From an uncultured Spirochaetales bacterium (GTDB lineage Bacteria; Spirochaetota; Spirochaetia; DSM-27196; DATKUC01), in the NCBI GenBank assembly GCA_964553615.1, contig CAZKMA010000021.1:4402-68401 (forward strand): a stretch of DNA of 64,000 nt, read 5' to 3'. The translations under genes were made by a program, and so were the position numbers. The notes beneath the pieces were generated by a model. The model ran no database searches, was not told where the DNA came from, and saw only the letters and a program-made list of their open reading frames with translations. Each line of letters starts with the position of its first letter. Positions within the stretch are counted from its first letter, which is position 1. Below are positions 26,904-37,089 of this stretch, one piece after another.

Positions 26904-27731
26904 TTATCTGACGAGTGCAGACAGGAGTGCCGCTATCACGGCGCCTGTCGCGCAACTCGCAATATTCACCACGTCGTTGTTCACGCCTGATAGCCCGCGG
27001 ATACGTATGTTCTTTGTGCCATCTCCACGGGTTTTTCGTTCGGTTATTCTGCCGGTGGATTCATCCCGGTACGTCGCCTGGATGGTGGCACCGATCACGC
27101 TGTCCACGATTGAGCCCGCGAAACCACTTCCTGTAACAATTCCCACAATCAAGAGGTCGCGGGGCCGGAACGACCAGCTGTTCGTCGCGAGGAGTCCTAT
27201 TCCGTAGATGAGGCCGATGAACAGGGCGCCGAGGAGCGCCGCGACTGTTCCGAATGCCGTTACTCCACCGGACATTCCGGCGGGAACGGCGCGGCCGGAG
27301 ATTATGGACACGGGACGTTGCCGGGAAAGCATTCCAATCTCCGTGGCCCAGGTGTCGGCGTTCGCCTCGGCAAACGATGCGGCAAGTGCGGCGAGCCATA
27401 TGGTGTTGCCGCTCAGCGCGTAGATTGTTGCGGCAAGGAACCCGATGCCGCCGTTCGCCATGACCTGCAGACTGTCTCTGCGATCGCCTTTTTCAATCAT
27501 GACCGCAGACGATTCCTTCCGTGCCCTGCCAATCCTGCTGAGAATCGAGGAAGAGAGGAAGAACGCGCCGAGGACAGTCCACGCCGACCAGCCGGAGAAT
27601 ATGAGAATCCCGGCGCTTACGAGGAATCCGACTGCGGCTCCTCCCGCGGTAACCGCCTTTCTCCAGTATGCGCCTGCGGCCAGCAGAAGATTTACCGCGA
27701 CGATCGTTACAAATGAAACTGGCGATAGCAT
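26904..27731 (-). CDS. DUF92/TMEM19 family membrane protein (VTE6 phytyl-phosphate kinase family)
   Basis: Polytopic Gly/Ala-rich protein with the DUF92-like blocks ...FAEANADTWATEIG... and ...GVNNDVVN.... Its start overlaps the upstream kinase gene's stop by 1 nt. Confidence 0.65.
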   Translation of the reverse strand: MLSPVSFVTIVAVNLLLAAGAYWRKAVTAGGAAVGFLVSAGILIFSGWSAWTVLGAFFLSSSILSRIGRARKESSAVMIEKGDRRDSLQVMANGGIGFLAATIYALSGNTIWLAALAASFAEANADTWATEIGMLSRQRPVSIISGRAVPAGMSGGVTAFGTVAALLGALFIGLIYGIGLLATNSWSFRPRDLLIVGIVTGSGFAGSIVDSVIGATIQATYRDESTGRITERKTRGDGTKNIRIRGLSGVNNDVVNIASCATGAVIAALLSALVR

Positions 27732-28414
27732 CAGACCCTCGCCAGGTTGAACAGCACGGTGGTCAGAATGGGCACGGTCAGATTGTCCAGGCCGAATGGT
27801 GTCAAAACCTCAATAGCGGTGGCAGTTGCCGCCACTTTGACCGATGTCAGAATGATTGAGTCAATTCCGCCGGCGAAGGAAAAGACCGAGAGTACTCCGA
27901 TTGATACGAGGAGGGATGCCAGAAACATGGCAACCGTTCCGCGAACAGATTTGAAGGTCCCAAAACCGAAGACTGTGAATCTCAGCCTGGAGCTTCTCCT
28001 GCCGATCAGCGCCGCCATTCCGTCTCCCCATCCCATGATCAGGACTCCGAGAGCGCCGGTATAGACAGGGAATACTCCTCCGAAAGTCAGGAATACCAGC
28101 ACGAGAAGGGAAACCGGATAGTAGATTGTGCCGAGACTTGCACGTGCCGCCTCGGAATCCAGTGCGGAAAACAGAGGCCGTTTCAGCGCGAACAGATTGA
28201 ACGCAATGAAGAACAGCGGGCCAATCGCCGCCACCCACGGTTTGTGGTGGAAGAGCATTGCAATGATCCACCAGTGTGCAACTCCAATGTGAACGATCTT
28301 CCGTCCCGTGTCGCCATCTATCTGATTTCGGTGGATGAGAATTTGAACGAAGCCGAGAAGAGAAAATATGAAAACAAATGAAACGAGGATGCCAAGAATG
28401 TCACGCATACCCAC
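27731..28414 (-). CDS. CTP-dependent polyprenol (phytol/dolichol) kinase family membrane protein (VTE5-like)
   Basis: Polytopic. RKIVHIG and the C-terminal MGWGDGMAALIGRR motif are typical of the phytol kinase/dolichol kinase/CDS-related family. Confidence 0.7.
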   Translation of the reverse strand: MGMRDILGILVSFVFIFSLLGFVQILIHRNQIDGDTGRKIVHIGVAHWWIIAMLFHHKPWVAAIGPLFFIAFNLFALKRPLFSALDSEAARASLGTIYYPVSLLVLVFLTFGGVFPVYTGALGVLIMGWGDGMAALIGRRSSRLRFTVFGFGTFKSVRGTVAMFLASLLVSIGVLSVFSFAGGIDSIILTSVKVAATATAIEVLTPFGLDNLTVPILTTVLFNLARV

Positions 28415-28470: not shown

Positions 28471-29217
28471 ATGGCAGTTCAAGATAAACAAAAACGGCTG
28501 GCTGTGCTCATCGATGCAGATAACACCCAACCATCAATCATTGAGGCATTGCTCGAAGAGATCGCCAAATACGGCGTATCGAGTGTGCGCAGGATCTACG
28601 GAGACTGGACGAGTCCCAATCTCAAGGGATGGAAAGACGTTCTTCTCGAGTATGCAATCCAGCCGATTCAACAATTTGCATATACCCGTGGCAAAAACGC
28701 CACCGACAGCGCGATGATCATCGACGCGATGGACTTGCTGTACACCGACAAATTTGACGGTTTCTGCATCGTCTCGAGTGACAGTGATTTCACGCGTCTG
28801 TCGGCGCGCGTACGCGAGTCGGGACTCACCGTCTACGGGTTCGGCGAACAAAAGACTCCGAAGGCGTTTGTCGGTGCATGCGACAAGTTCATCTATACCG
28901 AAATTCTTCGAAAGCGGGATGAAAAAGAGCCCGAAGTTCGCAAGGCACCAAGCTCGAAAGAGCTGAAGAGCGACACGCGGCTGGTCACGCTGCTACGAAA
29001 TGCGGTTGAGGACTCTGCCGACGAGAACGGATGGGCGCACCTGGGTACGGTCGGTCAGAATCTTGCAAACCGCGCTCCTGAGTTCGATCCCCGGAACTAC
29101 GGCTACAAGAAGCTTGGAGATCTCATTCGAGCGACCGGCCTGTTCGAAATTGATGAGCGATCCGCAGAAAACTCCCCGGCAAAAAATCTGTATGTGCGGG
29201 ATATTCGACGGCGGTAA
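28471..29217 (+). CDS. NYN (LabA-like) nuclease domain + OST-HTH/LOTUS domain protein
   Basis: N-terminal LAVLIDADNT...GKNATDSAMIIDAMDLLY...FCIVSSDSDFTRLSARVRESG (NYN/DUF88). C-terminal WAHLGTVGQNLANRAPEFDPRNYGYKKLGDLI (OST-HTH). Confidence 0.85.
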   Translation: MAVQDKQKRLAVLIDADNTQPSIIEALLEEIAKYGVSSVRRIYGDWTSPNLKGWKDVLLEYAIQPIQQFAYTRGKNATDSAMIIDAMDLLYTDKFDGFCIVSSDSDFTRLSARVRESGLTVYGFGEQKTPKAFVGACDKFIYTEILRKRDEKEPEVRKAPSSKELKSDTRLVTLLRNAVEDSADENGWAHLGTVGQNLANRAPEFDPRNYGYKKLGDLIRATGLFEIDERSAENSPAKNLYVRDIRRR

Positions 29218-29220
29218 CGA

Positions 29221-29649
29221 ATGGCATTCATGAAAAGACGCAGTAGCCGATCGGATGAGCGGGCGCGTTTGATCGAGCGCGGATTTCGACTGCGATCGCT
29301 CGACATTCTTGCAATTGCCCTGGCGCTCGGTGTGGTTGTGCTCTTTTCCGTAAACGCGTACACCGGATCAGGAAACAGCAGCGAGGTAATTGTCCAGGCG
29401 GATGGGAAGGACTTTCTCTATCCGCTCAATCAGGATACCGAGTTCAAGGTAACCGGTCCCATCGGAAAAACTACCATTCAGATCAAGAACCATTCCGTCC
29501 GCGTTGTTGATTCGCCCTGTCGCGACAAGATCTGCATTGCCGCGGGGTGGCTCTCTCACACCGGTCAGTGGACTGCCTGTCTTCCCAATCGTGTCTTTGT
29601 CAGAGTTGAGGGTGGAAAGCCGGCCACGGTGGATGCTCAGACCTTCTGA
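29221..29649 (+). CDS. NusG domain II-containing protein (DUF1312-like), N-terminal TM anchor
   Basis: A TM helix (ILAIALALGVVVLF) is followed by ...IVQADGKDFLYPLNQD...IKNHSVRVVDSPCRDKICI..GWLSHTGQWTACLPNRVFVRVEG, the C-x3-C...C pattern of NusG_II proteins found next to flavinylation genes. Confidence 0.7.
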   Translation: MAFMKRRSSRSDERARLIERGFRLRSLDILAIALALGVVVLFSVNAYTGSGNSSEVIVQADGKDFLYPLNQDTEFKVTGPIGKTTIQIKNHSVRVVDSPCRDKICIAAGWLSHTGQWTACLPNRVFVRVEGGKPATVDAQTF

Positions 29650-29859: not shown

Positions 29860-30693
29860 ATGAAGCGGCTAATGGTAGTCATGCTGTTGCTCGCAGTCGC
29901 ATTTGCGGCGTTTGCGAACGGCGAGAAGGAGAAGGGCGCTATCGGCTCTTCTGGGGCCCTGAAGGACGGAAGCTATTTTGCGACCTACACGACCGCAGAC
30001 AATCACGGCTGGCAGCCGTTCATGCGGATCGAGGTTGCCGGAGGTAAAATCGCTTCGGTTGCATACAACTATGTGAGTCCGGACGGAAAGATGTTCAAGA
30101 CTCAGGACAATCAGTACAACACAACCATGCTGAAGTTTGCCGGAACGAATCCTGAGAAGGCATACCCGGAGCTTGAAAAGCGGATAATATCCGCCCAGTC
30201 CGGCAAGATAGACGCGGTAACCGGGGCTACGCACTCGAGTGAAACCGCCATGGAGCTTGCTTCCGATCTTGTTTCTCGCGCCGGGACAGGAAATACCGCC
30301 GATCTGGTTCTGCCTATGACGGGAATGTATACGGCGGAAGACAAGCCGGACGAGCACGGCGGGTGGATCGGTCATCTTGAGGTGACATTCGGCGATCAGG
30401 GGAAGGTCACGAAGGTGGTCTACGACGAGGTCAAGAAAGAGAATAACAAGATTGTCGCCTACAAAAGCAAGGACATGGAATACGAGAAGAACTTCAAGGC
30501 CAAGAGCGGCATCAGTCAGGGAGAAGCTTACACCAGGCTGAGTGCCGAGCTGACGGCGACCGCCAAACTGAATACCGTTGATGCGGTCACGGGTGCCACA
30601 GGAACGAGTGAGCGGTTTAACGCGCTTGTGGAAAATATCAAGATGCAGCGGACAGGTGTTGCGCCTTCGGCAATAAAGGCGATGCTCAAGTAG
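29860..30693 (+). CDS. secreted protein with two FMN_bind domains (PplA-like flavinylation substrate)
   Basis: Type-I signal peptide (LLAVAFAAFANG). There are two repeats, each containing the ApbE target motif D-A-V-T-G-A-T (DAVTGATHSS at 30211-30240 and DAVTGATGTS at 30580-30609). Confidence 0.85.
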   Translation: MKRLMVVMLLLAVAFAAFANGEKEKGAIGSSGALKDGSYFATYTTADNHGWQPFMRIEVAGGKIASVAYNYVSPDGKMFKTQDNQYNTTMLKFAGTNPEKAYPELEKRIISAQSGKIDAVTGATHSSETAMELASDLVSRAGTGNTADLVLPMTGMYTAEDKPDEHGGWIGHLEVTFGDQGKVTKVVYDEVKKENNKIVAYKSKDMEYEKNFKAKSGISQGEAYTRLSAELTATAKLNTVDAVTGATGTSERFNALVENIKMQRTGVAPSAIKAMLK

Positions 30694-30788: not shown

Positions 30789-31925
30789 TCAGTTTGTTAC
30801 GTTGTCCGCCTTTTCTATCTGATCAATGGTGGAAACGGGGGGCGTATAATTCGGACCGGCTGCTGCGGTGGAAATATCCTCGATGTGGTAATCGGAGTTG
30901 GTGAGGGTGAACTTCCCATCCAGGCCGGGAGTGTAGTAGACCTTCTTGTTGTCGGTCACAAATATGGCATCGACACCCTTCATGTCACGGATCAGTTTAT
31001 AGCCATTTTCAAGCCCAAGCACGAATACCGATGTCGAAAGTCCGTCACAGATCATGGATACGTTGCTGTAGATCGTGGTGCTGGTCAGATGGTCCTGCAC
31101 CGGATAACCTGTCTTCGGGTTGATAATGTGGTGATACATGACTCCGTTCCTGATGAAGTAACGTTCGTACGGTCCCGAGGTAACGACCGACATATTTGTT
31201 GCGTTAACGATACCGAGGTAGCCACCGCGCGGGGCAAACGGTGTCTGGATTCCGATGCGCCAGGGCTTCCCGTCTGGTTTCGCGCCCATTACCAGGATGT
31301 TGCCGCCGAAATCGAGGATGGCGTGTTTGACCCCTTCCTTGATGAGAATCTGTTCAGCCTGGTCTGCAGCGTATCCCTTGGCGATGCCACCCAGATCGAT
31401 TCCCATCCCTTTCTTCTCCAGATACACGGAGTGATCGGCTTCATTCAATTTTATCCAGTGCCAGTTCACCAGAGGAAGCAGTTTCTTGATCTCTTCCGGG
31501 GATGGAAGTTGTTCATGATCGGTGCCGATGCCCCATAGTTTTACGATGGGTCCGACCGAGATATCGAAGGCACCGTCAGTCAACTTGCTGAATTCGAGTG
31601 CCGTCTTTATTACGTCGAAGACGTCTGGGGTTACCTGTACCGGTTTGATGCCGGCATTCCTGTTTATTTCGACAACTTCGCTGCTGTTTCCTTCCGTTGT
31701 CATGCGGTTATGAATGTCGCGCACGCGGGCAAACGCTTTTTCGAGAACCGAGGGGTCTACCCGATCGTACACGGTCATGGTAATGGTGGTGCCAAGAAGC
31801 AGTTCCGTGCGGGAAAATGGCTTCGTGGATGTCCTGCTGCCACATCCAGTGACCAATACCAGAGTGAGGGTAGCCACGCCCAGCAGCGCAGCCGTTGTCC
31901 AGCGAAACGGTGTTACTCTGTTCAT
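30789..31925 (-). CDS. apbE: FAD:protein FMN transferase (ApbE/Ftp), lipoprotein
   Basis: Lipobox LVLVTGC. ApbE blocks are present (TMTVYD...RDIHNRMT...GAFDISVGPIVKLWG..., GIAKGYAADQ, VVTSGPYERYF). It also has a ~40-aa C-terminal extension. Confidence 0.9.
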   Translation of the reverse strand: MNRVTPFRWTTAALLGVATLTLVLVTGCGSRTSTKPFSRTELLLGTTITMTVYDRVDPSVLEKAFARVRDIHNRMTTEGNSSEVVEINRNAGIKPVQVTPDVFDVIKTALEFSKLTDGAFDISVGPIVKLWGIGTDHEQLPSPEEIKKLLPLVNWHWIKLNEADHSVYLEKKGMGIDLGGIAKGYAADQAEQILIKEGVKHAILDFGGNILVMGAKPDGKPWRIGIQTPFAPRGGYLGIVNATNMSVVTSGPYERYFIRNGVMYHHIINPKTGYPVQDHLTSTTIYSNVSMICDGLSTSVFVLGLENGYKLIRDMKGVDAIFVTDNKKVYYTPGLDGKFTLTNSDYHIEDISTAAAGPNYTPPVSTIDQIEKADNVTN

Positions 31926-32091: not shown

Positions 32092-34269
32092 ATGGCAGAG
32101 AAGACACGTATTGCTGTGTTAGGAGCCGGTTACGCCGGCATAGCTGCTACGAAACTGCTCTACAAGAGGTACAAGAAGAACCCCAACGTAGAGATCAGTA
32201 TTATCGACCGGAACCCGTACCACACCCTCATGACGGAGCTTCACGAAATTGCCGGGTCCAGAACCGAGCCTGGGGCAGTTCAGGTGAGCCTGGCGAAGAT
32301 CTTCGGCGGGAAACGCATGAAGGTCGTCATTGACGAAATCGATACGATTGAGTTCGAACAGAACAAACTTGTGTCGAAATTAACTGAATACCCCTACGAC
32401 TATCTCATCATCGGCGCCGGCGCTGAGCCGGAATTCTTTGGAACGCCCGGTGTCCAGGAGCATTCCTTTACCTGCTGGTCCCTGGAGGATGCAATTCGCA
32501 TTCGCGTCCACGTAGAAGACATGTTTCGCGAGGCAGCCAAGGAGCCGAACGAGTCGAGGCGCAGAGAACTGCTGACATTTGTACTGGCTGGGGCGGGGTT
32601 TACCGGCGTTGAGCTTGCCGGAGAACTTCTCGAGCGGCGCGATGTGTTGTGCGAGCAATATCATATCAACCCCAAAGAGGTCCGGGTCGTCATTGTTGAA
32701 ATGAAAGACACGATCCTGCCAATTCTGCCGGAATGGCCACAGAAGAAGGCTGAAAAGTACCTCCAGAAACGTGGCGCAGAAATCATGCTCAATGCTCCGG
32801 TAGCGGAGGCTTCAGAGGGTTCTGTACGGGTTGCCGGCGATCACGACCTCGAGATCCGTACCGAAACCTTTATCTGGACCTGCGGAGTTCACGGGTCCGA
32901 GTTCACTTCGAAGATTGAGCTGACCAAGGGGAACTGTTCGCCTGACCACGGAGCGGTTGCTTCAATCGAGGGTATTCACGGCATGGCCGGATGCCATTTC
33001 GACGACGACGAACGGTATGTCGTCGGAGAGCGCGGTCGGATCAGTGTAAACAAATACTGTCAGTCCGTGGACTTCGACAACGTCTATCTCGTCGGGGACG
33101 TCATGTGGTACGTTATTGGCGACAAGGTCGTGCCGCAGATAGTCGAGACGGCGTTGCAGTCAGGAGAAGTCACTGCCAGGAATATCATCACGGATATTGA
33201 GGGTGGTGAGAAAGAGGGCTTCAATCCGAAGTACCACGGATTCATGGTTTCAATCGGCGGGCGGTATGGTGTAGCTCACGGCATGGGGATGTCGTTTTCC
33301 GGGTTCATGGCCATGTCTGCAAAGCACCTCATTAACCTGCATTATCTGCTCGGACTTGCGGGAATTAACGCCGTGTGGGAATACATGCAGCACGAGTTTT
33401 TCACAATGAAGGACCGGCGCAGTTTTATCGGTGGACACCTGTCATGGAAGATTCCGTCCTATTGGGCCTTTCCGCTTCGATTGTGGCTCGGCGGAAAATG
33501 GCTTTACGAGGGAATCAAGAAGGTCACCGAAGGCTGGCTCAATCCCGGCAAGGAGGGACTCGCGCACGTATGGTCAGGAGCCATTCGAATGCCTGGTGTG
33601 AGTTTTGCTGCCGAGGCAACGTCCGCAGCAACGGCTGCGACGGGGGCAGCGGCGGGACACGTTGCGCAGGCGGCAACGAGTGCTGCGGCAAATGCGACCT
33701 CGGCAGCGACGGCGGTTGCACAAGCTGCACCGGCAGCCGCTCAGGCGGCGGCTGACGCAACATCGGCAGCAACTGGGGCAGTAGCCGGCGCGGTAGCCGG
33801 TGCGGCACACACTGCCGCAGCTGCGGCCTCCTCCTACGGGCAGGCACTGAGCGGCCCATGGGGCGTGTACACCTGGTTTGCCCACAATGTCCTCAGCGCT
33901 TCGCCGCTGCTGGCGTTTCTTCTGCAGGCCGTCGTTGTCATAGTTGAGATCGGCCTTGGACTTGCGTTCGTTGGTGGAGCCTTCACCTGGCTTGCCGCTG
34001 TCGTATCCATTCTCATTGGCGTAATGTTCATCGCCTCAGGATGGGGAAGTCCGGAGCTGCTCTGGTACATGTTCGGCGCTCTCGTCATGATGGGTGGTGC
34101 CGGGCGCGCTCTCGGCCTCGATCACTGGATCATGCCGTGGCTGAAGGGCTGGTGGAACGGTACCCGGTTTGCCAAGCGCACCTACCTCTACACCGATGAA
34201 CCGCACGATCGATGGAACGGAAAGCGAGCAAGTCGACCGCAATCCAACATTTCTGTGTCATCACGATAG
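32092..34269 (+). CDS. ndh: type II NADH dehydrogenase (NDH-2) fused to a C-terminal DoxX/DoxD-like membrane domain
   Basis: Two Rossmann motifs (IAVLGAGYAGIA and FVLAGAGFTGVELAGEL) and the NDH-2 C-terminal blocks up to ~aa 430. These are followed by WLGGKWLYEGIKKVTEGW, an Ala-rich linker and then ...VEIGLGLAFVGGAFTWLAAV...MMGGAGRALGLDHW, which is DoxX-like. Confidence 0.8.
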   Translation: MAEKTRIAVLGAGYAGIAATKLLYKRYKKNPNVEISIIDRNPYHTLMTELHEIAGSRTEPGAVQVSLAKIFGGKRMKVVIDEIDTIEFEQNKLVSKLTEYPYDYLIIGAGAEPEFFGTPGVQEHSFTCWSLEDAIRIRVHVEDMFREAAKEPNESRRRELLTFVLAGAGFTGVELAGELLERRDVLCEQYHINPKEVRVVIVEMKDTILPILPEWPQKKAEKYLQKRGAEIMLNAPVAEASEGSVRVAGDHDLEIRTETFIWTCGVHGSEFTSKIELTKGNCSPDHGAVASIEGIHGMAGCHFDDDERYVVGERGRISVNKYCQSVDFDNVYLVGDVMWYVIGDKVVPQIVETALQSGEVTARNIITDIEGGEKEGFNPKYHGFMVSIGGRYGVAHGMGMSFSGFMAMSAKHLINLHYLLGLAGINAVWEYMQHEFFTMKDRRSFIGGHLSWKIPSYWAFPLRLWLGGKWLYEGIKKVTEGWLNPGKEGLAHVWSGAIRMPGVSFAAEATSAATAATGAAAGHVAQAATSAAANATSAATAVAQAAPAAAQAAADATSAATGAVAGAVAGAAHTAAAAASSYGQALSGPWGVYTWFAHNVLSASPLLAFLLQAVVVIVEIGLGLAFVGGAFTWLAAVVSILIGVMFIASGWGSPELLWYMFGALVMMGGAGRALGLDHWIMPWLKGWWNGTRFAKRTYLYTDEPHDRWNGKRASRPQSNISVSSR
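33607..33834 (+). repeat. Ala/Thr/Ser low-complexity coding tract inside the ndh fusion gene
   Basis: Translates to AAEATSAATAATGAAAGHVAQAATSAAANATSAATAVAQAAPAAAQAAADATSAATGAVAGAVAGAAHTAAAAASS. The nucleotides are GCN-rich with reiterated gcagc/gcggc units. Confidence 0.8.
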
Positions 34270-34384: not shown

Positions 34385-35512
34385 ATGACGCACTTCTGGG
34401 ATGACTTCCCGGCTATTCAACATGATCTGGAACGTGTCCATGATGTCATTCTGGACAATGTTCGCAGCCGGAACGTGACTATCACCCGCGCATTGACAAA
34501 TCTTGCGAATCGGAACGGAAAGTTGCTCCGGCCCGGGTTCGTGCTGTTGAGCGCTCGCCTGAAGGGCGACCTCATGAACGGAAATGACGGCAACGGGACG
34601 ATGGGCAATTTCGTGGAAAATGGCGATTTCGTCGGAAACGGCGGTTTCGTTGGAAACGGTCATGGATTTTCGGCCGAAGCAGCGGAATCCGGTCGTGGTG
34701 CCCGCACAGTTGCCGAAATACGGCCACTTCCGGAGAAGATCTACAAAATTGCCGCGTCCGTCGAGATGCTGCACATGGCGACCCTCATTCACGACGACGT
34801 GATAGACGAGGCCAACAACCGCCGCGGTCAACCGACGGTTCACGTCGAATACGGCAAGAAAGAGGCCATTCTGATGGGTGACTACCTCTTCAGCCGGACC
34901 TATCGGCTTCTTGCCGACAATACCAGCATCGAGAACGCAAAACGGCTTGCTCTGGTCGTGAGCCAGATTGTAGCCGGCGAAATCGATCAGTCTATTCCCG
35001 GCGAGCAGATCAGCTACGGACCGCGAACCTATATTCGCCGAGTCGTCGGAAAGACTGCCACCCTCATAGCCGATAGCTTCTATCTCGGAGCTTCGGAAGC
35101 CGATATGGGCCTTGCCCGGAGTACCTATCTCAGGCGGATTGGATACAGCATCGGGATGGCGTTCCAGATAATCGACGATATTCTCGATTTCACCGGTTCG
35201 GCCGATGTGCTCGGGAAGGCGCCGGGTTCCGACCTCCGTCAGGGAGTTGTGACGCTGCCACTCATCTACGCAATGCGCGCAAACGGCAAGGACGTTATCT
35301 GGAAAAGACTCTACACCCCGGAGAGGCTTACGAGTTCCGACTTGACCGCAATTATCGAGGCAATAGACCGGGAGGGCGGGTTCGCCATGGCCCGGGACAA
35401 AGCGGAGCAGTATACCCGCCGTGCTCTACGCCAGATCGCGTTTCTCCCACGCGGCGAGAACAAAGACGTACTGGCAGCGGTGGCCAGAAAGCTTCTCGAT
35501 CGTACCTACTGA
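34385..35512 (+). CDS. long-chain polyprenyl diphosphate synthase (hepta/octaprenyl type) with Gly/Asn/Phe repeat insertion
   Basis: FARM LIHDDVIDEANNRRG and SARM FQIIDDILDF are both present, as is KLLRPGFVLLSARL. A ~50-aa insertion precedes the FARM helix. Confidence 0.9.
   Translation: MTHFWDDFPAIQHDLERVHDVILDNVRSRNVTITRALTNLANRNGKLLRPGFVLLSARLKGDLMNGNDGNGTMGNFVENGDFVGNGGFVGNGHGFSAEAAESGRGARTVAEIRPLPEKIYKIAASVEMLHMATLIHDDVIDEANNRRGQPTVHVEYGKKEAILMGDYLFSRTYRLLADNTSIENAKRLALVVSQIVAGEIDQSIPGEQISYGPRTYIRRVVGKTATLIADSFYLGASEADMGLARSTYLRRIGYSIGMAFQIIDDILDFTGSADVLGKAPGSDLRQGVVTLPLIYAMRANGKDVIWKRLYTPERLTSSDLTAIIEAIDREGGFAMARDKAEQYTRRALRQIAFLPRGENKDVLAAVARKLLDRTY
34604..34675 (+). repeat. in-frame 18-nt tandem repeat (3 good copies + 1 degenerate) inside the polyprenyl synthase gene
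   Basis: ggcaatttcgtggaaaat / ggcgatttcgtcggaaac / ggcggtttcgttggaaac / ggtcatggattttcggcc encode GNFVEN GDFVGN GGFVGN GHGFSA. Confidence 0.85.
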
Positions 35513-35535: not shown

Positions 35536-37089
35536 CTACTCCGGGTATTTTCGCCGTATTTCCCTGAAGGTGTCCTGGACTCCAACGAGCAGGTCCACCA
35601 GAACGGGGTCGAAATGCTTCTCGCGATCACCGACAATGTCTGCCATCGCCTGTTCGTGACTCCAGGGTTCCTTGTAGGGCCGTTTTGATGTCAGAGCATC
35701 GTACACGTCGGCCAGTGCCGTTATCCGGGCGGAGAGCGGGATCTCTGAACCAGCAATTCCGTGCGGGTATCCTGTGCCGTCCCACCGCTCGTGGTGATGC
35801 AGGGCGATTCGTGAGGAGAGAGTCAGGAACGATTGCTTACCGAGCTCCTGGTCCGCCTCGTTCAGGATGTTCCAGCCCCAGATTGTGTGTTTCTTCATGA
35901 TTGTCCACTCCTGCGGCGTCAGGGTCGCCTCTTTCAGGAGGATGCTGTCCGGAACTCCAACCTTTCCTATGTCGTGCAGCATGGACGAGAGAAAGATGTC
36001 ATCGATGTACTCGTCGGAGATGTTGAATTTGTATGGCTGGTGCCGGTAGACCTCGGCCGCAAGCGCGCCATTGTATTCGGATATCCTGTACAGATGTTTC
36101 CCGGTTTCCAGGTCACGGTACTCGGCAAGCGCGGCGAGGGATTTCATGGCGGTGGACTGGGTTTTTTGCAGCACCGAGGTCGTTGCCTGGAGTTTTTCGT
36201 TCACGACCCGATGTCGTTCCAGTGTTTCCTGAAGGTCTTCATTCAATCTGAGATAGTTGCTTACATCGAACAGGACTCCCAGCGTGTTCCTCCCTACGAG
36301 CGTTGCCGCATTCTGGACAATGCGGGTCTCTCCTTCCCCGGTGCGGATATGGGCGTTGATTGATCCGGGTTGATCCTGCAGAATTCGAAGCATTCCCTCC
36401 TGCCACAGATCATCTCCGACGAAGAACGGTCCGTGCTCGTTCACCTCGTCGATGTTGCCGTACTTGAACGTCCGCAGAAAGACCTGATTTGCCGTAACAA
36501 AGCGACCGGCCGGGTCGGTGACGTACATCGGAACGTTCAGCATGTTCATGAGGCGGCCAAGAACGCCGGGCGTCAGTGAATCCGGTTCGTCACTCTTGCG
36601 GCGGAGCATTCGGGTTTCCTTGCGGAGCATTCCGACGGTTGTCAGATCCTGAGCCTTGGATGCGAGGAATCCGAGCATGAGCGCATTCTGCTTGAGAAAT
36701 CGGCGCGGGGATTCGCACTTCACGAGAATGGCGCCGTTCGCATCGCCCACCGGGTTTTTCAGCGGATAGTAAAGGGTAACATCCTTCTGGAATTTCTGCG
36801 GGAATATGCTCTGCGGAACAGGCGATTTCCCGTTCAGAACCGCGGGTCCGCGCGGGAAGAGCGCCGCCTGCCGTGAAGGGAGCAGAAAACTGAAGTCTAC
36901 CGGTTTTTCCCCGTCAGGGCTGTCGAAGTACACAATTCTCGTCGAGTGAACGTCAGGGAATCGTTCAATCCAATCGAGAAGCCTTTTCATCTTCTGCGAA
37001 TGGGACAATTCGCAATCGAGTTCTTCGAACAGGTCCAGCAGCTGTTCCAGCACGCGTGTCATCCGATTCCACTCCCCTCTCATTACCAC
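35536..37089 (-). CDS. HD-GYP domain cyclic-di-GMP phosphodiesterase with N-terminal sensory (GAF/PAS-like) regions
   Basis: The C-terminus has HDIGKVGVPDSILLK...HHERWDGTGYPHG...ALADVYDALTSKRPYK, a canonical HD-GYP. The start is uncertain (GTG 37089, ATG 37083 or ATG 37062). Confidence 0.85.
   Translation of the reverse strand: MVMRGEWNRMTRVLEQLLDLFEELDCELSHSQKMKRLLDWIERFPDVHSTRIVYFDSPDGEKPVDFSFLLPSRQAALFPRGPAVLNGKSPVPQSIFPQKFQKDVTLYYPLKNPVGDANGAILVKCESPRRFLKQNALMLGFLASKAQDLTTVGMLRKETRMLRRKSDEPDSLTPGVLGRLMNMLNVPMYVTDPAGRFVTANQVFLRTFKYGNIDEVNEHGPFFVGDDLWQEGMLRILQDQPGSINAHIRTGEGETRIVQNAATLVGRNTLGVLFDVSNYLRLNEDLQETLERHRVVNEKLQATTSVLQKTQSTAMKSLAALAEYRDLETGKHLYRISEYNGALAAEVYRHQPYKFNISDEYIDDIFLSSMLHDIGKVGVPDSILLKEATLTPQEWTIMKKHTIWGWNILNEADQELGKQSFLTLSSRIALHHHERWDGTGYPHGIAGSEIPLSARITALADVYDALTSKRPYKEPWSHEQAMADIVGDREKHFDPVLVDLLVGVQDTFREIRRKYPE

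Follow-up and report, generated by a model that had tools for sequence, protein, structure and literature searches.

In a 64,000-nucleotide stretch of DNA from an uncultured Spirochaetales bacterium (contig CAZKMA010000021.1, positions 4,402 to 68,401; this whole stretch is called the window below), an open reading frame (ORF) at positions 32092-34269 of the + strand, intact from ATG to stop, encodes a protein of 725 amino acids (aa). In all likelihood, the gene encodes an Ndh2 of the extracellular electron transfer (EET) type, carrying a DoxX-like membrane domain and belonging to a flavin-based EET system like that of Listeria, here in a diderm spirochaete. Between the first two transmembrane (TM) helices of the membrane domain lies an Ala-rich tract, which we propose to be an outward-facing loop with repeated motifs resembling the flavinylation site of ApbE, the FAD:protein FMN transferase (FAD, flavin adenine dinucleotide; FMN, flavin mononucleotide). 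The features of the gene are as follows, where pLDDT stands for the predicted local distance difference test score of AlphaFold2:

32092-34269, + strand: whole gene, probable EET-type Ndh2, with an NDH-2 (type II NADH dehydrogenase) and a DoxX-like membrane domain (ORF; homologues; identity to Listeria)
32092-33381, + strand: predicted cytoplasmic NDH-2 domain, aa 1-430 (Pfam Pyr_redox_2 and Pyr_redox; PDB 4nwz)
32122-32139 and 32590-32607, + strand: GxGxxG motifs
32926-33039, + strand: clade-specific insertion in the NDH-2 domain, about 38 aa (aa 279-316), with conserved Cys, His and Met (alignment; pLDDT 50-57)
33304-33402, + strand: helix pair that follows the NDH-2 core, aa 405-437 (AlphaFold2 helices 405-423 and 425-437)
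33457-33528, + strand: TM1, first DoxX-like helix, aa 456-479 (AlphaFold2 helix, pLDDT >90; invariant R463, G467, W470 and G474)
33529-33903, + strand: TM1-TM2 loop, predicted to face outward (periplasmic), aa 480-604 (Lys and Arg content; length variation)
33607-33834, + strand: tract rich in Ala, Thr and Ser, aa 506-581, with predicted disorder or weak helicity (composition; pLDDT)
33613-33633, + strand: flavinylation-like motif 1, EATSAAT, candidate FMN acceptor Thr514
33691-33711, + strand: flavinylation-like motif 2, NATSAAT, candidate acceptor Thr540
33754-33774, + strand: flavinylation-like motif 3, DATSAAT, candidate acceptor Thr561
33904-34092, + strand: TM2-TM4 of the DoxX-like domain, aa 605-667 (AlphaFold2 helices 605-628, 632-649 and 655-667; hydropathy)
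34093-34269, + strand: basic, predicted cytoplasmic C-terminal tail with GGAGRxxGLDHW and AKRTYLYTxEP (rich in Lys and Arg; conservation)

The first 430 aa or so match Pfam Pyr_redox_2 (E = 7.8e-29) and contain two Rossmann dinucleotide-binding motifs of the GxGxxG type (GAGYAG, aa 11-16, and GAGFTG, aa 167-172), as an earlier sequence-only reading of this DNA had noted when it described a complete NDH-2. They also match solved NDH-2 structures, namely 4nwz from Caldalkalibacillus (C. thermarum; E = 1.9e-62), 9pxk (B. subtilis YjlD; 3.3e-54) and 5na1 (S. aureus; 1.9e-44), and the prediction that this domain is a typical cytoplasmic NADH:quinone reductase is thus strongly supported. The AlphaFold2 model, built from a 64-sequence alignment, has a mean pLDDT of 79 and a predicted template modelling score (pTM) of 0.71 over the 725 aa. 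In it, the two helices after the NDH-2 core would sit where the membrane-anchoring C-terminal helices of NDH-2 enzymes do, and by analogy with known NDH-2 they may have the same role.

The fusion of the NDH-2 to the membrane domain is confirmed as real, intact and conserved. More than 100 spirochaete homologues share the architecture (637-766 aa, 97-99% coverage), relatives of the C-terminal domain are encoded in no fewer than 387 species-level genomes, and both parts lie in a single ORF in 77 of the 77 genome loci that could be checked, including loci from genomes of isolates (Alkalispirochaeta alkalica and Sphaerochaeta halotolerans). Full-length matches to the C-terminal domain are all fused to an NDH-2, the shorter ones resemble fragments from short contigs, and Listeria and Enterococcus carry the same fusion. 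The explanation that an assembly error or frameshift made one ORF of two separate genes, one for an NDH-2 and one for a DoxX protein, for which nothing more speaks than a GC-rich (72%) low-complexity stretch at the junction, is ruled out by these homologues and loci, and the fusion described in the sequence-only reading is genuine. It had been presented there as an oddity; instead, it is the defining NADH dehydrogenase of flavin-based EET, a system whose definition is 'a NADH dehydrogenase with a transmembrane helix' encoded in a cluster of flavinylation genes (Meheust et al. 2021), and the group is named clade D in a 2026 NDH-2 phylogeny and includes the Ndh2 of Listeria.

Four TM helices are predicted in aa 440-725 by hydropathy and AlphaFold2, mostly with high confidence, and the peptides by which the first helix and the end of the last had been recognised, WLGGKWLYEGIKKVTEGW and MMGGAGRALGLDHW, are found at aa 465-482 and aa 666-679. 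Beyond the helices, the C-terminal tail has the invariant residues G668, G669, G671, G675, D677, W688, E703 and P704. Compared with the Pfam DoxX profile, the protein scores 10.4-10.7 bits with the tract kept, below the gathering score of 23.6. When the Ala-rich tract was removed, the score was 18.7 bits (E = 0.0029), still below 23.6, and the match began at TM1 and spanned profile positions 4-77 of 85, implying that TM1 is DoxX helix 1 and that the tract is inserted between helices 1 and 2. A tract splitting the domain, with helix 1 on one side and the other helices beyond it, had been proposed from the sequence, and the match crossing both sides agrees with this. Among 26 relatives, DoxX was matched by 17 (best 4.9e-6), DoxD by 11 (best 2.7e-6) and MauE by six, the matches falling on the TM2-TM4 region, and the Listeria Ndh2 orthologue, with 25.6 bits for DoxX, passes the Pfam threshold. 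In summary, the DoxX/DoxD-like character of the C-terminal part, as read from these profiles, is clear at the level of the family, where the earlier DoxX assignment holds, and weak for this protein taken alone.

A profile of the domain, searched against 1.84 billion proteins, reached only 391 representatives and did not reach ordinary DoxX proteins, which marks it as a distinct subfamily. The domain has in common with DoxX and DoxD (Pfam PF07681 and PF04173) a predicted four-helix membrane domain and, once the tract is removed, profile similarity, and its E-x-x-G-x-G-L...G..T signature aligns with E. coli YqjF. It differs from them in scoring, in this protein, below the Pfam threshold, in being fused to an NDH-2 and in the long extracytoplasmic loop that parts helices 1 and 2. 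As to whether the halves on either side of the tract would assemble into one DoxX fold, a Foldseek search of the C-terminal model against the PDB gave no meaningful match, so the fold is proposed from sequence profiles only. An hhalign comparison with E. coli DoxX (YqjF) covered 31 columns over TM2-3 (E = 0.014, probability 3%), and we rejected it as too weak to serve as evidence. A quinone-linked role of the domain is suggested by two associations: the enzyme TQO (thiosulfate:quinone oxidoreductase) has DoxD as its small subunit, and yqjF, the E. coli DoxX gene, adjoins the gene of a glutathionyl-hydroquinone reductase. We infer such a role from this name and this neighbourhood only.

The tract at 33607-33834 is, as had been noted, rich in Ala, Thr and Ser (57%, 12% and 8% of its 76 aa), and residues 508-582 have a pLDDT below 50. 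Across 154 relatives, the number of Lys and Arg residues per 100 aa is 2.3 in the TM1-TM2 loop, compared to 11.9 before TM1 and 22.7 in the C-terminal tail. With a cytoplasmic NDH-2 domain followed by one TM helix, the loop is placed outside, where the ApbE lipoprotein acts, and by this positive-inside analysis it very probably faces the periplasm. The TM1-TM2 segment varies from 33 to 163 aa among homologues. Tandem Repeats Finder detected in the tract only one repeat, of 12 nucleotides in two copies, so the tract is not a recent slippage array. The sequence-only reading had treated the tract as a mere linker; we infer instead that it is an outward loop with a conserved, repeated motif resembling an ApbE flavinylation site. 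This nature of the tract appears to be new to the literature, in which the NDH-2/TM fusion itself is already known.

The motif occurs three times in the window protein, as [D/E/N]-A-T-S-A-A-T, and resembles the ApbE motif D-x-x-[S/T]-G-A-[S/T], in which FMN goes on the last Ser or Thr (2025 ApbE review). The copies encode AA[E/N/D]ATSAAT and their DNA differs at synonymous positions, which, together with the lack of a recent tandem DNA repeat, implies that the peptide, and not the DNA, has been conserved. A heptad of the DATSAAT type is repeated two to three times in the closest homologues (P0001, P0002 and L019), and the aligned loops of homologues nearly always hold at least one, for example DATSAAT, DAGSSAS, DAASAAT or DSGASPEWE; the copy number ranges from one to six and the heptad is retained. 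The pattern D..[ST][GSA]A[ST] was found 155 times in 110 distinct loops, compared to 1.4 expected from within-loop shuffles, and a relaxed heptad is present in 110 of 113 spirochaete loops, 103 of 108 clostridial loops and 57 of 65 loops of representatives at 50% identity, compared to about 5% of shuffled loops; these counts overstate the independent observations, as shuffle controls ignore shared ancestry. Over 507 instances, position 1 is D (86%) or E (13%), position 2 is A in 73%, position 3 is variable, position 4 is S (62%), T (20%) or A (19%), position 5 is A (49%), S (37%) or G (14%), position 6 is A, as fixed by the search pattern, and position 7 is T (63%) or S (37%).

The position of the motif is also kept. 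Across the spirochaete set, the end of the first site usually lies 13-16 residues past a conserved [LM]PG; in this protein it ends 14 residues past that proline, and likewise past MPF in Listeria. The same loop of Listeria Ndh2 contains TSGAS, within ...PFEWLQTAATSGAS... (also shown as ...MPFEWLQTAATSGASQAAGDA...), and that of Enterococcus gilvus Ndh2 contains TTGAS, in ...PFPWLQEQVTTGAS..., as well as EATTAAT (EATTAATGA). Other Bacillota loops, some of them named Clostridiales or Halanaerobiales, have DATTGAS, DATSSAS, DAISSAT or DAVTSAS. The motif thus recurs in separate phyla, with occurrences in Spirochaetota, Clostridia and Bacilli, and in loops of differing composition.

We considered whether the loop could be no more than a flexible spacer in an otherwise known EET Ndh2, the DoxX-like domain anchoring the protein and handling the dedicated quinone and the likeness of the heptads to the ApbE motif being without function. 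The wide variation of the loop in length and sequence, its predicted disorder and the rarity of Gly at position 5 fit such a spacer. However, the heptad is 20-100 times more frequent than expected from composition, it persists through changes of copy number and through the synonymous divergence of the DNA, it is found in Spirochaetota, Clostridia and Bacilli, and it stands also in loops that are not Ala-rich, such as that of Listeria with its TSGAS.

Seven residues suffice for flavinylation by ApbE and a tag of this kind functions in surface loops; within the tag, a change of Gly to Ala leaves about 50% of the flavinylation, a change of Asp to Ala has a minor effect, and Ser is accepted less well than Thr (2025 ApbE review). 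In E. coli RsxD, the motif of the RnfD type reads DGISQAT, which shows that a natural site can have a residue other than Gly at position 5. V. cholerae RnfD was reportedly found to carry a covalent flavin (Backiel and colleagues, in 2008). The PplA-like proteins in related spirochaete loci also depart from the canonical site (L003, 4484-5455, L039, 4245-5435, and L017, 5595-6500): position 4 is Ala in DVVAGAT and DAVAGAT, and position 6 is Val in DAISGVS. Tolerance of non-textbook motifs is probable for this group's cognate ApbE enzymes. The substitution data and the RsxD motif indicate that the strict consensus is not required, and our claim is that the loop likely works as a substrate, not that it belongs to an established class.

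In several lineages (P0013, P0022, P0028 and P0043 are examples), P-E-W-E-G-G or E-W-V-E-E-G comes after each heptad, as in DSGASPEWEGG and DATAAATEWVEEG. Two to three residues past the candidate acceptor there is thus a conserved Trp, which could stack on a flavin ring. The P-E-W-E found past the motif in several spirochaete loops can also be read as a binding epitope, which would not be specific to flavinylation, and this touches on another explanation, that the heptads serve otherwise, either as sites of O-glycosylation or as an unmodified docking peptide for ApbE, PplA or a periplasmic reductase. Ala/Ser-rich periplasmic tracts are targets of glycosylation in some bacteria, and an outward-facing loop with Ser and Thr in an Ala-rich context would suit this. 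However, conservation falls on the positions of the ApbE motif (Asp at -6, Ser/Thr at -3, Ala at -1 and Ser/Thr at 0), and it is ApbE, not a glycosyltransferase, that is the conserved gene partner, and we consider a function of this other kind improbable.

The genes around the Ndh2 gene are the following:

29221-29649, + strand: EetA-like NusG domain II membrane protein (Pfam NusG_II, E = 1.7e-25; tblastn, E = 7e-8)
29860-30693, + strand: PplA-like secreted protein with two FMN-binding domains (Pfam FMN_bind, two stretches; NCBIfam PplA, E = 2.1e-40, below cut-off)
30789-31925, - strand: ApbE/FmnB-type FAD:protein FMN transferase with the lipoprotein signal LVTGC, divergent from the Ndh2 gene (Pfam ApbE, E = 8.1e-95)
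34385-35512, + strand: DmkB-like long-chain polyprenyl diphosphate synthase, for a quinone tail (Pfam polyprenyl_synt, E = 7e-55)

With the Listeria EET proteins as tblastn queries, homologues of FmnB, PplA, Ndh2, EetA and DmkB were found side by side in the window. The ApbE has 45% identity to Listeria FmnB, the PplA-like protein 34% to PplA and the polyprenyl synthase 33% to the synthase of the Listeria EET locus, and Listeria EetA is in the same Pfam family, NusG_II, as the EetA-like protein. For Ndh2, the identity is 40% in the N-terminal part and 39% in the C-terminal part; the C-terminal domain matches by tblastn with E = 1e-7 and 8.6e-14, and a hidden Markov model (HMM) of it aligns to aa 403-627 of Listeria Ndh2, so that the comparison with its C-terminal domain, which the sequence-only reading had suggested, has established homology. 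EetB, FmnA and MenA/DmkA had no tblastn match within the 64-kilobase (kb) window, and their genes may lie elsewhere in the genome. The cluster, in which ApbE/FmnB, PplA, EetA and polyprenyl synthase genes are all present, falls under the operational definition of the EET system (Meheust et al. 2021). The Listeria and Enterococcus gilvus EET loci used here were taken from chromosome pieces filed among plasmid records, and a profile search of a large protein collection for Listeria-like sequences gave clostridial fragments only.

Gene context was counted in 80 related genome loci. The polyprenyl synthase gene lies directly downstream of Ndh2 in 77 of the 80 and an ApbE gene is present within 8 kb in 41. 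The PplA-like protein of the window has canonical DAVTGAT motifs at 30211-30231 and 30580-30600, and so, on the spacer explanation, would already account for the adjoining ApbE. Against this, an iterative HMM search detected no FMN_bind/PplA-like ORF in 22 of the 41 ApbE-bearing loci, and six loci (L008, L009, L028, L043, L059 and L066) are compact units of NusG_II, ApbE, Ndh2 and prenyl synthase genes with no space for a PplA gene. In loci without such an ORF, Ndh2 is the sole protein near ApbE with a motif of this kind, and it was the same reasoning from context that led to DUF2271 and DUF3570 as ApbE substrates.

Several points weigh against a flavinylated loop, in addition to the overstated counts mentioned above. 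In roughly half of the related loci, ApbE is missing from the surrounding 8 kb. The copies in the window depart from the strict ApbE consensus, with Ala at position 5 in each and Asp at the start of a single copy, and the family favours Ala or Ser at position 5 with Gly in 14% of instances. The sites lie in a tract predicted to be disordered, whereas every confirmed class of ApbE substrate has a folded flavin-binding domain, and no FMN_bind, NqrB/RnfD, DUF2271, DUF3570 or flavodoxin-like Pfam domain was found in aa 440-725. Loops do not have more motif copies where a PplA-like gene is missing (mean 1.7 vs. 2.0, p = 0.28). The motif-less homologue P0186 nonetheless sits with an ApbE and an FMN_bind protein, and a flavinylated loop cannot be universally required; a second motif-less homologue, P0137, has neither ApbE nor FMN_bind protein nearby, and the two together give no clean correlation. 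A literature search, the scope of which did not include the original 2018 and 2019 Listeria papers, found no mention of FMN on any Ndh2 or of its DoxX similarity. Homologues without the motif, P0186 among them, are also what a plain spacer would lead one to expect; weighing this with the enrichment and spread of the heptad, we regard the spacer explanation as less likely than flavinylation. For our own reading, that the loop is flavinylated and carries electrons, we put the probability at roughly 50-55%.

If the loop is flavinylated, the system could work as follows. After the published Listeria model, NADH would reduce the FAD of the cytoplasmic NDH-2 domain, which would in turn reduce a dedicated naphthoquinone, whose tail would be made by the adjoining polyprenyl synthase. 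Thr514, Thr540 and Thr561 would be substrates of the neighbouring ApbE and bear covalent FMN linked by phosphoester bonds. The DoxX-like domain would offer a site for quinol oxidation close to the membrane's outer face; from the quinol, electrons would go to the FMN tethered on the flexible loop and from there to the PplA-like protein or further periplasmic acceptors. Both ends would then be served by Ndh2, from NADH to quinone inside and from quinol to flavin outside. Electron flow into a dedicated quinone pool or to the periplasmic flavoprotein had also been suggested in the sequence-only reading; this is reasonable and matches the Listeria model, and for that reason is not new.

The comparison with Listeria bears on this scheme in several ways. 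In Listeria, FAD export is the role now given to EetB with FmnA, and an eetA deletion is without EET phenotype, so that no protein has an assigned role in moving electrons from quinol to PplA or FrdA. Whether the family-wide loop motif, Listeria included, marks this missing quinol-to-flavin step is, in our estimate, an even question. The tryptic peptide of Listeria Ndh2 that contains TSGAS, from MPFEWLQ... to ...LVMQK, is about 59 residues long and hydrophobic, which could explain why proteomics has reported no modification there. In its widest and tentative form, which we rate slightly below even, the proposal is that the EET-type Ndh2 proteins, Listeria's included, are ApbE substrates in which a 'flavin tether' of one or several FMN molecules on a disordered loop of the DoxX-like domain passes quinol electrons to PplA, FrdA or other acceptors, and that they would form a new, domain-free class of substrate and a conduit from NADH to extracytosolic flavin within a single polypeptide, which would fill the unassigned step of quinol oxidation in flavin-based EET.

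The flavin-based EET locus of Listeria reportedly described by Light and colleagues in 2018 includes Ndh2 (Lmo2638). Like the window protein, L. monocytogenes Ndh2 (Lmo2638) is an NDH-2 fused to a homologous C-terminal DoxX-like domain of four TM helices, with a site of the [S/T]GA[S/T] type in the TM1-TM2 loop, and its gene has as neighbours those of an FMN transferase, PplA, EetA and a polyprenyl synthase. The window differs in its diderm spirochaete host, in which the acceptor side is the periplasm, in a loop expanded to a 76-aa Ala-rich tract with three heptads and Ala for Gly at position 5, and in a PplA-like protein with a signal peptide and without a lipobox, while EetB, FmnA and DmkA/MenA are those not found in its 64 kb. 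Listeria PplA is described as a lipoprotein; the PplA-like protein starts with MKRLMVVMLLLAVAFAAFANGEK, has a signal peptide and lacks a lipobox cysteine, and from this sequence is probably soluble and periplasmic in this host. The NDH-2 domain also differs from that of Listeria in its extra insertion with Cys and His. This insertion (aa 279-316, ...GNCSPDHGAVASIEGIHGMAGCHFDDDERYVVGERGR...) has G294, H296, G297, M298, G300 and C301 invariant in 64 aligned spirochaete homologues; in tblastn, 445 matching Listeria residues span about 478 residues in the NDH-2 part, as expected of an insertion that Listeria lacks. The insertion may be a metal site or a redox-sensing one.

With the known ApbE substrates (the FMN_bind proteins NqrC/RnfG, NqrB/RnfD, DUF2271, DUF3570 and proteins flavinylated at several sites), the loop has in common a predicted extracytoplasmic Ser or Thr within D-x-x-[S/T]-x-A-[S/T] and an adjoining apbE gene. 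As in multi-flavinylated proteins, there are several sites per protein, here candidate sites, and in the engineered 'flavin-tag' the bare seven-residue motif suffices as an ApbE substrate. The loop differs from these substrates in that its sites, candidates from sequence, are outside any known folded flavin-binding domain, within a membrane protein's low-complexity loop, and mostly have Ala or Ser at position 5.

Other genes near the cluster vary between relatives. In the closest genome relative, L001 (2934-5350), the slot between the EetA-like gene and ApbE, where the window has its PplA-like gene (29860-30693), is filled by a UbiA-family prenyltransferase (Pfam, E = 2.2e-13) and by two ORFs that resemble the ATPase and the permease of an ATP-binding cassette (ABC) transporter, and evidently accessory genes are swapped between close relatives. 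A DUF92 membrane protein (26904-27731, - strand) and an adjoining 227-aa membrane protein without a Pfam match (27731-28414, - strand) occur near the Ndh2 cluster in 11-12 of the 80 related loci and are possible partners of the system with a lipid- or polyprenol-related role. The gene next to the EetA-like one on its upstream side is for an NYN ribonuclease-like protein with an OST-HTH/LOTUS domain (28471-29217, + strand), which is found near the cluster in 10 of the 80 loci. Directly past the polyprenyl synthase gene, a 517-aa protein (35536-37089, - strand; this observation also covers L081, 9571-10902) with HDIGK...HHERWDGTGYP reads like an HD-GYP cyclic-nucleotide phosphodiesterase. It is kept in L001, L019 and L027, and the Listeria EET locus has an annotated cyclic nucleotide phosphodiesterase right past its polyprenyl synthase gene.

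In summary, the observation from which this analysis started, an NDH-2 with a membrane domain split by an Ala-rich tract, is confirmed, and its earlier interpretation is partly supported. Flavin-based EET occurs widely among Gram-positive bacteria of the gut and of food and among Gram-positive pathogens. Should the motif be unmodified, the locus would be an ordinary spirochaete member of this known system. If the loop is indeed flavinylated, the outward loop of Ndh2 would be a concrete candidate for the step that passes electrons from the membrane quinol to the extracytosolic flavoproteins, a domain-free flavin tether that can be expanded by repeats would join the classes of ApbE substrate, and the system would be placed in diderm spirochaetes as a periplasmic route for electrons.

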